A stretch of DNA of 63,428 bases, filler included, from Octopus bimaculoides (GCF_001194135.2; 5 parts of 5 records of this genome joined end to end with filler, not necessarily neighbours in it); one strand, 5' to 3'; shown: positions 1-53,357, numbered from the whole stretch's first letter. Notes: generated by a model from the letters alone, not told the origin. A program made the numbers and translations.

Positions 1-243
1 TAACGTTTCTTATTTCTTTATTGCCCACAAGGGGCTAAACACAGAGGGGACAAACAAGGACAGACAAAGGGATTAAGTCGATTACATCGATCCCAATACG
101 TAACTGGTACTTAATTTATCGACCCCGAAAGGATGAAAGGCAAAGTCGACCTCGGTGGAAATTGAACTCAGAACGTAAAGACAGACGAAATACCGCTAAG
201 CATTTCGTCCGGCGTGCTAACGTTTCTGCCAGCACGCCGCCCT
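1..243 (-). mobile_element. tRNA-headed SINE family A (Meta-domain-like core), variant with Tx1-like 3' tail
   Basis: Minus strand: A-box-like TGGCAGAAACGTT, B-box-like GAGTTCAATTTCC, core GTCGACTTTGCCTTTCATCCTTTCGGGGTCGATAAATTAAGTACCAG shared with copies at 22043, 35178, 39943-40432 and 60645. Superfamily label is from memory. Confidence 0.9.
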
Positions 244-244
244 C

Positions 245-2960
245 AGTGGTTGCATATATAGAAGAGACGAGGATGGTAGTGCTGCTGGTGGCGGTGGCTG
301 CAGTGGTGATAGTGATAGGGACATAGTAGTGGTTTTAGTGCTAGTAGAGTTAGTGGTGGTAGCTGGTTGTAGCGGTAGGGCCATAGTACTGGTGATAGTG
401 GTAGTGGTAGTAGTAGTTGTACTAGTAGCAGTAGTGGCTAGTAGTAGTAGTGGTTAGTAGTAGTGGTAGGGGCATAGCACTAATGGTAGTGGTAGTAGCA
501 ATGTGATAATGTTGGTGGCTGTTAGTCGTCGTAGCAATGGTAGGAACATAGTTGTACTTGTGGTAATAGTGATAGTGGCTGTTGTGTTGGGAGTGGTAGG
601 GCCGTGGTACCAGTGATGGTGATGGCAGTATTAGCTTAAACTGTTGAAGCAGTGGTAGTGATCACAGTACGAGACAGGCGTGTTGATAATGGTAGTAGTA
701 GTGGTAGTAGTAGTGGTGGTTGTATTGGTTGTAGTGAAAGAATTGTGGCAATAGGGATGGTGATGGGGTAGTAGTATAAGCTGTTGAATTAGTAGTGGTA
801 GAGATCATGGTGCAGATTAGAGTGGTGATGACCATAGGAGTCGTTGTGGTAGTAGCTATAGTAGTAATAGTGGTATAGTCCTGGAAATAGTAGCGGGATT
901 GGCGGTTGTAGTATAAGCTGTCGTCGTATTAGTGACAATGATCATGGTGATAGGAGTGTAGGTGTGATGGTGGCAGTGGATGTTGTCGTATTAGTCGAAG
1001 TAATAACGATGAATGCAGCAGCAGCAGCAGTAGTAGTAGTAGTAGTAGTAGTAGTAGTAGTAGTAGTAGTAGTAGTAGTAGTAGTAGTATAAGCCTTCAT
1101 TATAGTAGTGATTATGGTCGTGGTTTTCCATTCGAGACCGAACTCATATAAAAAATATTTAAAGAAAATTATTTCAAGTACCATATGTAGTGGGAGGTAA
1201 GTGTGGGGACAGAATTCATACACTTTCCCCAGTAAAACTGCTTAATCTGACCTGACTGAATGATGGTAGCGGCCTACTCTGATCAGACATGGCACCTAAA
1301 TCGTAAGCTCAAAATCGCTACAATGGTTTCGAAGAACATTCAGTAGGCCTTTGTGGCGGGGTTTTTGATTGGTCCGAGGTGGCTGCTCCTTTCTACACGT
1401 TAAGGGTACACGTTAAGGCACTATATCTTTCACGTCGTTTATATATTTGGCTGTTATTTCCACGTATCATGTACCATGTCGCAATCTGTGTAAACCCCCA
1501 CGACCATCACCATCATCACAACTATCACCAACAGCACAACCACCACCTCCACTACCACTACTACTACTACTACAACTACTACTACTACTACTACTACAAC
1601 TACTACTACTACTACTACTACTACTACTACTACTACTACTACTACTACTACTGCTGCTGCTTTGTAATCAGTCCTTATAATGTGAATTATTGTTTCTATC
1701 GTAGTAGTAGTAGTTGTTGTTGTTGTTGTGGTGGTGGTGATGGTGATAATTGTGGAGGTGGTGGTAGTAGTAATTGTGTTCTTGTTCATGTTGGTGATGG
1801 TTGTTGTTGTGATGGCGGTACCAGTAATGGTCGCGGCTATTGGTTGGTGGGCAATGGTATTTGTCATAGTTGTATTAGTGGTGCTGATGGTAGCTGTGAT
1901 TGTGGTGTAGTGTAGAGGTACTAGTACGTCGCCGATGATGATGATGGTGATTGCAGTTGGTGGTGGTAGTAGTAGTCGAAGTGGTTGCCATTATACTAGT
2001 GATGGTCATGGTACTGGTAGTGGTTATAGTGGTAATAATAGTAGTAGCTGTTGTCGTAGTGTGGTGGAAGAGGTAGTAGCGGTGGCGGTGGTGATAGTGA
2101 TAGTACTGTTAGCTATCGTGGTAGTAGTGATGGTGATGGCAATAGTAGTAGCGGTGGTGGTAGTACCAATCACTCTGATGGTAGTACTAGTGGCCGTTGT
2201 GGTGGAGGTAGTAGTGTCAGCAGTAGCAAGAGTAATACTAGTTAGGGTGGTAGTAGCGGTGGTATAGATGGAAGTAGTAATCATTGTGACGGTGAATACG
2301 GTGGCAGTAGTAGTAGTAGTTGTGGTGGTGGTGGCGGCGGTGGTGGTAGTAGTAGTAGTGGTGGTGGTGTTGGTAGTAGTAGTAGTGGTGGTGGTGGTAG
2401 TGGTGGTAGTAATAGTAGTAGTGGTGGTGGTAGTGATAGTGGTGTTGGTGGTTGTAGTAGTAGTGGCGGCGACAGTAATCGTGGTTACAGAGTCGGTGGC
2501 TGTGGCACTAGTGGCGGTGGTAGTGAGGATGATAATCGTGGCAGTTGCAGTGGTAGTGGTAGTGGTGGAGGTAGTGGTGGTGGTGGTGGGTAGTAGTGGT
2601 AGTGATCGTTGAAGTAGTAACGGTAGTAGGGATGTTGTAGGTGGTGGTTACGCTAGTAGCGGCGGTAGTAGATGCAGGAGGTTGCGTTGGTGGCAACAGA
2701 AGCAGCATTAACAGCAGCAGCAGCAGCAACAGCATTAGTATTAATAGTAGTAATAGTAGTAGTAGTAGTAGTAGTAGTAGTAGTAGTAGTAGTAGTAGTA
2801 GTAGTAGTGATGGTGGTGGTGATGGTGATCAGGACAATGGTGGTGATAGCGACACTGGTGTAGTTGATATTGTTGTTGGTAGTAGTAGAAGTAGTAGTAG
2901 TAGTAGTAGTAGTAGTAGTAGTAGTAGTAGTAGTAGTAGTAGTAGTAGTAACTGTGGTAG
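245..2960. repeat. Degenerate (GTA/GTG/GTT)n trinucleotide block with an inverted (CTA/CAC)n island at about 1500-1660
   Basis: Direct reading of the sequence; the GTN phase shifts repeatedly. Confidence 0.95.
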
Positions 2961-50905: not shown

Positions 50906-50949
50906 CAGGTGTGGCTGTGTGGTTTGCTCACTGCGGTTTGCTCACTGCG

Positions 50950-53357
50950 CATGTGCGTCAGACTTGCTACTTGCCGTCAACGAAGATAGACACGAGTTTC
51001 GGCTCTGTCTAAAAAAGGAAAAATTAAAGAATTCGCCGAGGTAAGTCGTTTTTGTTGCTCAGCTGGGCAGTAATTTATTGCTTCTATTTATTTTTTCAGT
51101 AAATTGTTGTCCAGCGGTGTGGCATCTTCGCTTTCCTTGGCGAGTTTTTTGCGTGTGTTCGTTGTACGAACAAATTTTGTATTCGCTGTTTGTGGGAGGC
51201 GGGTTCGCTTGCCCACAGTAGCGATAATTTTTGTTTTGACTTTGAGCCAAAAAAAAAAAAAGAAAAAAGCAACTTTGAGTGAAGTCGACCGAGGTGGGCG
51301 GAATTGGTTTTTGAGCTGTGTGTAATTTATTGTGTTTCTTTTTTCAGTAAATTCGCCAGCTCTAGAGCAGTTCCGTTTACTTTCGGCGACTTTAGGTTGT
51401 TGCTAATTTTTGTGGACAAAATTGTGTTTCTCGTTCGTCGTTATTGGTAGGCGTGTTCGAGTCACCATAAGGCGGACTGAGAATTTTTTGTGAAAAACTT
51501 TTTGTGTCTCACTTAATTGCGAGAACTGTTGTTTTTGTGGGCGTATCTCGCCTCCGAAAAACTTGCAAAAAATTCTAACAATTTGTGAAGGATTTCTCTG
51601 TGTTCCTGTTGCTGTGGCCCTGGATTACCCTTACTGGAATACCTTATTGGAATACCTGTAGGCTAGGATTACCGAGTGGCCGGAATTGTGTTGCTGTGAC
51701 TTGAACTGTCTTCCTTCCTTCTTTTTCTCTGCTCTGTCTTTCTGTTCTTTCTATATTTATTTATTTATCTATTTATTCATTTTTTGCTGTGAACCCTTTT
51801 GTTGAACTTTTCGTTGAACTTTAATTTAAAAAGAAATTTTTTTTTTTTGTGGAACATTCTGAACTTTTTTTGAAAACATGGCAGGAACTGTGTCCACCCA
51901 AGCAGTGGTTGAAAGAAATAGAGGAAAGAACAGTGACGCTCCGAACCTACTCAAAGGTGTTGGATAGCGTCACTGTCTTTCCTCAAACTATTATTGAAAA
52001 GGAACTTACGAATGTTAATGCCAACTTTAAATATATTTCAAGGGGAGTCAAATATGCAACCGTGTAGTTGCTTTTTGACTCCCCGAGTGAAGCTCGCAAA
52101 TTTGCGAGTGGGCCCATTGAGGGCAAAGAAATTTTGTTTCTGCCAACATATTGTGAACAAAAAATAACGAAGGCTTGGGTCTGCGGGTTGCCGCCTGGAA
52201 TAAATCCCGAGTGGATTGAAGATTCTTTCTGGCGGGGTCTGGCGGCACCGGAACCAAGCTCCTCAATGTAAAAATTTTGCCAGAAATTGACTGAGAGGGG
52301 TCAAAAGCGGTGTTGACCCTCTGGTCCCAGTCGATTGCGAGTCTGGTGTTTCCAGACTTTTTAAGGACGGCACAGGCAAGGTATCCAGTGATTCTGGAAG
52401 GACGCCCTCCTAAGTGTCACAAGTGCCTTGAATCCGGCTATTTAAAAAAGAACTGTCCCAAGGGCCGAGGTAAGGCCCCGGAGCAGAGGAAAAAAGAAAA
52501 TGTGCCCTCCGCCCCACCATTGGAGGGGGAGACGGAGGAAGTCGTGGAGGCGGTGGCCTCCACGAATAGAAAGAGGAAGGCGAGCAGCGGTGGTTACTCA
52601 CCAGGAGAAATAGAGGTTTCAGGAGAGGAGGAGGACACCTCGGGTGTGCCGAAGGATGCCCCGATCCCCGCAACCGGTAAAAGTAAAAAAAAAGAAAAGG
52701 AGAAAAGGGGGACGGTCGGTAGACGTGCTGCCGACCGAACCCGAGGCCTCTCCGATGAGAAGTGAGCCCCCAGAGAGGAAAACTCTGCCATCGGGAATTG
52801 TGCCGATGACAGAGTGGCGTGACGTCCCTCCCAGTGAGGATAATGATTATATTATCATGTACTATGAGGGACGAGCGGTGAATGAATTCTTGGACCGCGA
52901 GTGCGGCCAAGATAGGAGCTACTCGGATTGTGCGAGTAGTTCCACATGGCCTCCGCAGGTAATTGCGGAGGTTCTAAATGACAACATATTGGCAAAAGTC
53001 ATAGAAAAATATAACCATAAAGATTTCTTCTACCTCGCCGCAAATTCAAGCCTAACAATAGACACTTGTTTGGCAGGGGCAGCATATCTGCTTGCGGAGG
53101 GGTGGAATGAGGAAAATTGTGATATTTTTAATTGTTAATATATTGAAATTGTGGAAAAATTGTAATTTTAAAAAGAAAAAAATAACAATGTTTTCGAGGG
53201 GTTATCAGTCGGCGGGCACTGGTGCATCTCTCATTATTTGTTTCATACTTATCACCCTCATCTCATTAATGTCCATGTCCAGCCCGCAGCTACTTCATGT
53301 TTGTCTGTCTTTGTCTGTCCTCTCTATGTAACGCCGTTAATGGCGAAAATTATTGAT
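50950..53357 (+). mobile_element. ORF1-only (HAL1-like) Tx1/L1-type retroposon
   Basis: About 0.9-kb 5'UTR with duplicated monomers, disrupted gag-like ORF with zinc knuckle, about 200-bp 3'UTR, tail shared with the Tx1 relic and SINE A; no EN/RT between stop and tail. 5' boundary approximate. Confidence 0.75.
51878..53138 (+). pseudogene. LINE ORF1 (gag-like) protein, disrupted
   Basis: EERTVTLRTYSK..LFLPTY..WVCGLPPGINPEWI..YPVILEGRPPKCHKCLESGYLKKNC (CX2CX4[H>Y]X4C at 52415-52456), then basic/acidic low-complexity region; at least two stops and frameshifts. Confidence 0.82.

Follow-up and report, generated by a model that had tools for sequence, protein, structure and literature searches.

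The stretch of DNA analyzed here (the window) is 63,428 nt of Octopus bimaculoides sequence, filler included (GCF_001194135.2; five parts joined, of which positions 1–53,357 are displayed). It holds three retroposons of different kinds: a short interspersed element (SINE A), the relic of a long interspersed element (LINE), and an element that has a first open reading frame (ORF1) and no ORF2. All three finish in versions of one 3′ tail, in which a TCCCC or TCCTC box is followed at a fixed spacing by a small predicted hairpin and an A-rich end. Related versions of this tail also close intact LINEs of a sister lineage, and on balance we take them to be a likely RNA signal by which the ORF2 protein chooses its templates in target-primed reverse transcription.

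Three elements with a common 3′ tail

SINE A occupies 10–243 on the minus strand and is made up of head, body, and tail. A-box-like (231–221) and B-box-like (169–157) motifs were found by regular expression and by eye, despite which ARAGORN and Rfam call no tRNA. The tail (17–68, minus) consists of a TGTC tract, a TCCCC box, the hairpin GCCC-CTTGT-GGGC (35–23; 5-nt loop), and AATAAA. The edge of the window truncates the 3′ flank behind it, and the tail leads straight into 9–10 nt of the SINE's own head (1–10, minus). Head and body are present in seven copies in the window, as befits a short, dispersed, multi-copy SINE, and one of them has a 14-bp target site duplication (TSD; the copy at 60846); the SINE A type of tail is found on only one of the seven.

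The LINE relic (5807–6893, plus strand; located by tblastn to P0009) is a 5′-truncated and broken ORF2 that keeps only the C-terminal third of the protein, namely, the zf-RVT region and the part behind the reverse transcriptase (RT) domain. Its pieces are 45%–71% identical to residues 768–1148 of P0009 (tblastn), a full-length ORF2 protein of 1148 aa with Exo_endo_phos, RVT_1, and zf-RVT domains (Pfam), whose best match in the PDB is human L1 ORF2p (E = 1.5e-53; R2, 1e-19). Judged by these comparisons, the relic belongs to an L1/Tx1-type LINE. The narrower Tx1 label is that of a preliminary description of the window: Our tree of 46 ORF2 relatives has no named Tx1 or L1 reference in it, and no database match bore a name of that kind. 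Among the relic's relatives is an Argonauta protein, in line, like the ORF1 identities given below, with octopus-type DNA. The relic's tail lies at 7157–7193, ∼260 nt past the end of ORF2, and has a TCCCC box, the hairpin AGCC-CTGCGT-GGCT (7174–7187; 6-nt loop), and AATAAA; an (ATCT)n repeat (7193–7320) stands right behind it.

The ORF1-only element (50906–53356, plus strand) is half-LINE-like. Its 5′ end is not fixed, with family variants from position 50965. The broken ORF1 (51885–52636) is homologous to a type I ORF1 protein (ORF1p), with an RRM-type region and a CCHC knuckle, and is 64% and 59% identical to the Octopus sinensis protein P0006. P0006 itself has the look of a type I ORF1p with RRM and CCHC: It resembles RRM+CCHC clusters (Atlas look-alikes), with zf-CCHC in Pfam at an E-value of only 0.058; a single-sequence AlphaFold model was unusable (pLDDT, 38). 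Pfam found nothing above its cut-off in eight broken fragments from the window. A further open frame of 125 codons (52761–53138) may be the C-terminal part of ORF1; it has no similarity to ORF2 and no credible homolog among 1.84 billion representatives, and two matches to it were rejected as internally repeated, unrelated proteins. Next comes a 3′ segment common to several repeat families (53202–53298), before and behind which varied sequences join and where read depth rises several-fold; the segment is also present in a second organism (B). The tail (53300–53356) has a TGTC tract, a TCCTC box, the hairpin CGCC-GTTAAT-GGCG (53332–53345; 6-nt loop), and an A-rich end. Both L1/Tx1-type remnants found in the window finish in the tail, on the same strand and ∼200–260 nt past the last open frame.

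Read data for 50906–53357 (two DNA runs of organism A, organism B, and one RNA run) show that the ORF1-only element is a multi-copy family without ORF2 between ORF1 and the 3′ end. For organism A, 804 contigs were obtained from one DNA run and 976 from the other. They fall in every identity band and cover 30 of 30 bins, among them the region from ORF1 to the tail, where ORF2 similarity is absent; copy number cannot be read from the summed depth. Not one contig extends over the whole element, and diverged contigs that overlap one another cross 52666–53159. Loose contig ends were inspected in 24 of 662 cases. At both in-frame stops of the window's ORF1, most of the read depth has sense codons. 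Organism B shows the ORF1 core together with the 3′ segment, the middle being sparse or absent (24 of 30 bins). Depth climbs at 53202–53283 and again in the last bin, and at 53315 the letter shared by SINE A and the relic accounts for 23675 of 24145 (X1), so a very abundant repeat bears the TGTC tract; this repeat is probably SINE A. Some 6% of the RNA run yielded 679 reads; 65% of these reads continue into other sequence, and relatives of the element are therefore transcribed, on a strand that is not clear from these reads.

A 3.3-kb (GAAC)n-type satellite (53359–56642) directly adjoins the ORF1-only element. Upstream of the element lies an AT-rich block (50150–50750) with CCGGAAGT-type repeats in both orientations. 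Farther upstream, an open frame at 49379–49831 (minus), in which Pfam finds nothing, resembles by eye what we take to be a piece of a pogo/Tigger transposase.

The SINE A tail (minus 53–17) agrees with the relic tail (7157–7193) at 31 of 37 nt without a gap, and an overlapping part of it (minus 68–39) agrees with the tail of the ORF1-only element (53300–53329) at 26 of 30 nt. The preliminary description had reported both likenesses, placing the first a few bases off at minus 57–18, along with three different 4-bp stems, all pairing, with 5- to 6-nt loops and A-rich ends; all of this is borne out. Comparison with shuffled sequence also upholds the likenesses. With 300 dinucleotide-shuffled queries against the real, microsatellite-rich window, the best scores were 26/37 and 23/30, and none reached the observed values; in local alignments, neither match was equaled in 500 shuffles. 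A tract-plus-stem pattern derived from the three tails themselves occurs at exactly three places in the window and in none of 100 shuffles, and no solo tail lies elsewhere in the window (next best, 21/37). All six differences between SINE A and relic fall in the last 21 of the 37 nt, within and around the stem-loop, and yet the stem is perfect in both. The SINE A tail bridges the other two: In the tract it is nearer to the ORF1-only element, and in the hairpin end nearer to the relic. Outside the tails, the 3′ regions of relic and ORF1-only element are A-rich and their best alignment was reached in 15 of 500 shuffles; we do not accept this as homology. The TGTC tract alone is low-complexity sequence, and another repeat family supplies look-alikes of 20–22/30 at five places in the window (10217, 12439, 12593, and 47368, plus; 38640, minus).

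Sister LINEs and sister SINEs

Copies of the repeats were drawn from the window, the read data, and assembled contigs. A protein-based scan returned 44 loci, 38 of which are arrays of an intact LINE on eukaryote-like contigs of one assembly, G001, where host-derived contigs lie inside a bacterial metagenome-assembled genome. This LINE has an ORF1 of ∼640 aa and an ORF2 of 1155 aa, the latter 41% identical to P0009, and in the tree it forms the sister clade of the octopod group. Its units (∼6.4–6.9 kb) are arranged head to tail, the 5′ untranslated region (UTR) of the next unit beginning just past AATAAA. The arrays (L012–L047, L050, and L055, on contigs C3–C19) have up to ∼11 consecutive units per contig, and no telomere repeats were found in the nine array loci checked.

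The sister LINE carries the tail throughout. All 42 distinct 3′ regions (duplicates and regions <800 nt excluded; six distant loci gave no ORF2 C-terminal match) have a C-rich box and a GGC-CTnGT-GCC hairpin 664–728 nt past the C-terminal match of ORF2, with the same spacing from box to hairpin as in the window tails. A second, variable hairpin and then AATAAA follow. The tail pattern occurs 60 times in G001, about once per unit, against none for the reversed control. Two G001 families, with ORF2s 48% identical and UTRs alike in short patches only, both keep box and hairpin, the outer hairpin pair being open in one of them. The more distant relatives L048, L049, L051, and L052 (28%–30% ORF2 identity), some of them on short contigs, have no box-plus-GC-stem, and one has only a T4/A4 stem. 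The preliminary description had called for a full-length Tx1 with this tail; a full-length LINE that ends in the same layout is present in the intact sister lineage, and no second copy of the relic's own family with its tail was found in the metagenome and viral contigs searched.

The ORF1 of the ORF1-only element is only 22%–29% identical to that of the sister lineage; its knuckle region matches the sister ORF1 at E = 2e-4. P0006 matches the sister ORF1 at E = 4e-8 (61 matches), and the two have the knuckle motif in common. A close autonomous partner of the ORF1-only element with matching ends was not found.

The window itself contains further SINEs with tails related to those of the sister LINE. 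A copy of SINE B at 60636–60846 (minus) has the same head and body as SINE A, a tail of the sister-LINE type (0 of 300 shuffles), and the 14-bp TSD. A 5′-truncated SINE B (40268–40435, minus) has a perfect AGGC-CCTGT-GCCT hairpin (0 of 300), and a third copy (35184–35400, plus) has a decayed tail of the same type (1 of 300). Two copies of SINE C are decayed: At 22046–22250 (plus) the tail, with a CTTGT loop, is borderline (4 of 300), and at 40070–40261 (minus) the tail is not significant against the LINE UTRs tested (best, 32 of 300). Three of the five tails hence match the last ∼35 nt of the sister LINE. A conserved stem-loop tail that is integral to the LINE family and shared with a SINE, as in LINEs of the stringent type, is accordingly seen in the sister lineage (42 of 42) with SINE B; for the pair of relic and SINE A, the likeness is 31/37 with the relic known as a single copy. 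The picture is also broader than first described: The tail of these sister SINEs is that of another LINE family within the lineage. The second SINE C copy follows directly after the truncated SINE B, the tail of the one adjoining the head of the other at 40261–40272.

Searches of other collections gave little. The SINE core pattern had no matches in viral and genome contigs, and an ORF2 alignment search found no loci in metagenome or viral contigs. The tail pattern had 11 matches in metagenomes, all with a GC content of 0.44–0.69, without a full stem, and without a blast match to the window; these were set down to chance and reused as a control. A look-up of RNA data sets bearing the relic listed none, which speaks neither for nor against its transcription.

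In L048, a U1 small nuclear RNA (snRNA) gene lies in the repeated unit (3036–3199 and 9961–10137), ∼200 nt upstream of the ORF1 start of the LINE relative. This 28%-identical relative beside a U1 snRNA gene suggests target specificity. As to a target preference, one of the features that would tell Tx1 from L1, the sister lineage stands in head-to-tail arrays and the window copies abut microsatellite or satellite.

Pairing and covariation in the hairpin

We aligned eleven tails: four of 13 LINE variants, four of the six other SINE copies, and the three focal tails. They align nearly gap-free, the box and the 3′ arm being 19 nt apart. In the register with a 5-nt loop, 79% of cells are paired (shuffles, 62 ± 5) and covariation is 0.40 (shuffles, 0.135 ± 0.064; 0 of 500 reach it; best slid control, 0.23), figures that are not probabilities, the tails being hand-picked and related and relatedness alone being able to beat shuffles. 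Between SINE A and LINE L018, in the same register, three of the four pairs are changed on both sides. Covariation of the stem, which the preliminary description had wanted tested across copies, is seen as compensated pairs across families.

A fourth tail appears only as read overhangs behind 53294–53298 (53 and 74 RNA reads and three DNA contigs), which were not picked for having a stem. It consists of CTATGT, two bases, the stem GGCT-TTCAT-AGCC, and an A-rich end. Stems of this kind are found at 3.2% of window positions, at two of 81 other CTRTGT sites, and at none of the 11 chance pattern matches. The four different stems are each paired at four of four positions, those of the relic and the ORF1-only element with a 6-nt loop only.

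Fold z-scores of these small stems range from −0.3 to −1.7, so folding energy alone is no evidence; in one of six folds, that of a 61-nt SINE A piece, the minimum free energy structure is a different one. For the sister-LINE tails, RNAalifold returns the first hairpin only, which is nearly invariant there. The second hairpin (L018:2700–2725 and equivalents) varies in sequence among subfamilies and folds in 10 of 10 variants taken singly; its alignment is poor, and we claim no covariation for it.

Function of the tail and related systems

Most likely the tail derives from a LINE, is common to the whole lineage, and is structurally constrained, because it closes the sister LINE in 42 of 42 cases, is present on SINE B, and has a compensated fourth stem. 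We consider it rather probable, further, that it passed from LINE to SINE, that an RT recognizes it, and that partners can be assigned as follows. The tail would have arisen in a LINE, whose ORF2 protein would bind box and hairpin at the RNA's 3′ end and prime reverse transcription there, as in L2-clade LINEs. The RT may read the shape of the hairpin and a Y-U-N-R-U-like loop, while tolerating changes in the letters of the stem. A single combination of SINE head and body may have gained tails from different LINE families and then been copied by those families, the donor being the relic's family or a near relative of it for SINE A and the sister lineage for SINE B. The ORF1-only element could be a deletion derivative that lost ORF2, kept ORF1 and tail, and moved in trans, probably by means of its own sister family and not the exact family of the relic. 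The preliminary description had proposed a Tx1-driven system of LINE, half-LINE, and SINE served by a single RT. A real, LINE-associated tail with covarying stems, an ORF1-only family, and an ORF1 akin to that of the sister LINE all remain from that proposal. A single RT for all three elements is less likely, since tails are family-specific and those of relic and ORF1-only element match only weakly. Several sister LINE families serving different elements are likelier.

Besides the choice of tails for the covariation figures, several observations weigh against this reading. Compared directly, relic and ORF1-only tails agree at only 23/37, a local score reached by 32 of 500 shuffles. Their stems need the 6-nt loop, the common register giving 2/4 and 1/4 pairs, and the loops of the ORF1-only and fourth tails are unlike CTnGT. 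The stems are small and their z-scores weak. The two SINE C tails match the sister LINE weakly or not at all. In local alignment, the tails of SINE A, relic, and ORF1-only element are not significant against the sister UTRs at the tail; their suggested homology with the sister-LINE tail is one of layout, register, and loop. All sister-LINE copies come from the single assembly G001, which lacks SINE A, and in 59 kb of G001 flanks no repeat other than microsatellites was found in common with the window (two repeat searches and masked blast). Searches of metagenome and viral contigs found no second copy of the relic family with its own tail, and no TSD was found at the relic or at the ORF1-only copy. 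Lastly, given the head-to-tail arrangement of the sister LINEs, the tail could owe its conservation to a role as DNA target.

This last point underlies the main alternative, in which the tail is LINE-derived and conserved either as a DNA target for self-insertion into tandem arrays or as a signal for 3′ processing or stability, and not as RNA bound by the RT. We think it improbable. The arrays speak for a DNA target, as do SINE B running into SINE C and SINE A being followed by its own head. Dispersed SINE copies nevertheless retain the tail, one of them with a 14-bp TSD in unrelated DNA, and a stem whose letters vary while its pairing holds is easier to reconcile with a single-stranded structure than with a duplex target. 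A 3′-end signal would agree with the hairpin adjoining AATAAA, but an RNA polymerase III SINE has no obvious need for such a signal of RNA polymerase II.

Somewhat less probable still, the tails could be shared by descent and spread by template switching or recombination, the RT being of the relaxed, A-tail type and the hairpin without present function. Every tail does end A-rich, the covariation comes from few related families, and RTs of the L1 clade are mostly relaxed in the part of the survey covered (PMC3472496). Against this, box, spacing, and pairing persist at 41%–48% ORF2 identity, where the UTRs otherwise align in no more than short patches, and each of the four different stems is fully paired. 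It is very unlikely that the relic tail, and perhaps the ORF1-only tail too, is an independent small repeat or a separate SINE A insertion with heavy 5′ truncation. The single relic-family copy, its ends without TSD, and the great abundance of the tract-bearing repeat would suit such an insertion; the clustering of the relic–SINE A differences around a stem that stays perfect, the lack of solo tails in the window, the same layout at the ends of intact sister LINEs, and a family-level depth that continues through the ORF1-only element into its tail do not. Chance likeness of low-complexity, TC/TG-rich sequence, which the tract look-alikes and weak z-scores might recommend, is largely refuted by the shuffles of both SINE A matches (0 of 300 and 0 of 500) and by the 42 of 42 in the sister lineage.

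The signal for RT recognition that we favor is best seen against what is known of other LINEs. Elements of the L1 clade are the chief exception to the borrowing of LINE tails by SINEs, and mammalian LINE-1, which is without strict tail recognition, is thought to have relaxed from a stringent state. The comparisons that follow refer to the covered parts of the papers cited. Tail sharing between SINE and LINE with stem-loop recognition was shown for L2-clade LINEs (PMC4176376), and common tails of 35–61 bp (72%–95%) are reported in bivalves (PMC11481361). UnaL2/UnaSINE, ZfL2, CR1, L2, RTE, Tad1, and the bivalve CR1-Zenon, L2, and Nimb pairs are like the octopus case in having a short common tail with a small stem-loop (PMC4176376, PMC11481361), and among such stringent pairs one SINE body may likewise carry tails of several LINE families. 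The octopus case differs in its L1/Tx1-type partner, none of the bivalve partners listed being L1 or Tx1 (PMC11481361), and in a tail that also ends an ORF1-only element. Closest in clade are LINE1-1_ZM with ZmSINE2/3, sorghum SINEs, and L1-1_CR of Chlamydomonas, which have a conserved end of ∼45 nt with a compensated hairpin, shared with SINEs as here (PMC3472496); a survey of the L1 clade counts three SINEs, from maize and a green alga (PMC3472496, PMC3747384). In crocodilians, Tx1-Mar was proposed to mobilize SINEU in trans (PMC4494074), as we propose for the octopus. That link differs in relying on target preference and heads, no LINE having matched the 3′ half of SINEU-1, and SINEU, with its snRNA heads and poly(A) tails, is unlike the octopus SINE (PMC4494074).

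HAL1 (L1), HeT-A (Jockey), and Ag-Sponge (CR1) are, like the ORF1-only element, multi-copy elements with a 5′ UTR, ORF1, and 3′ end and without ORF2 (PMC5786205, PMC5753468). The octopus element differs from these in its type I RRM plus CCHC ORF1p, in belonging to an invertebrate L1/Tx1-type lineage, and in its structured, SINE-shared tail. Type I ORF1p, present in the sister LINE and, by its likenesses, in P0006, is reported to agree with Tx1 in non-mammalian animals (PMC5203782). In Octopus vulgaris, 80 L1-Tx1, 60 L1, and 1279 unclassified SINE families are annotated, without LINE–SINE pairing in the part of the annotation covered (PMC13282606); SINEs make up 11.7% of that genome, most families being unclassified (PMC13282606 supplement). 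The open literature searched (Repbase, Dfam, and subscription papers being beyond reach) yielded no account of a tRNA-type SINE that shares its tail with an animal L1/Tx1 element, nor did supplementary files 1–4 of Petrosino 2022 give a match. As far as that literature goes, stringent L1-clade SINE pairs are in print only from plants and a green alga, and an animal case of L1/Tx1 type would be new.

More tentatively, octopods may hold an animal L1/Tx1-type lineage that has kept stringent, structure-based 3′ recognition, with family-specific stems, SINEs that hop between tails, and half-LINEs that use the same signal. If so, the lineage would offer a natural matrix of tail-by-RT specificity and, in an animal, a model for the stringent condition from which mammalian L1 may have relaxed. 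Its intact members, natural stem variants, and SINE and half-LINE passengers would permit a direct test of the relaxation idea, and comparison with the solved structures of human L1 ORF2p could locate the basis of tail recognition. Some octopus SINEs would also have been assigned a likely partner.

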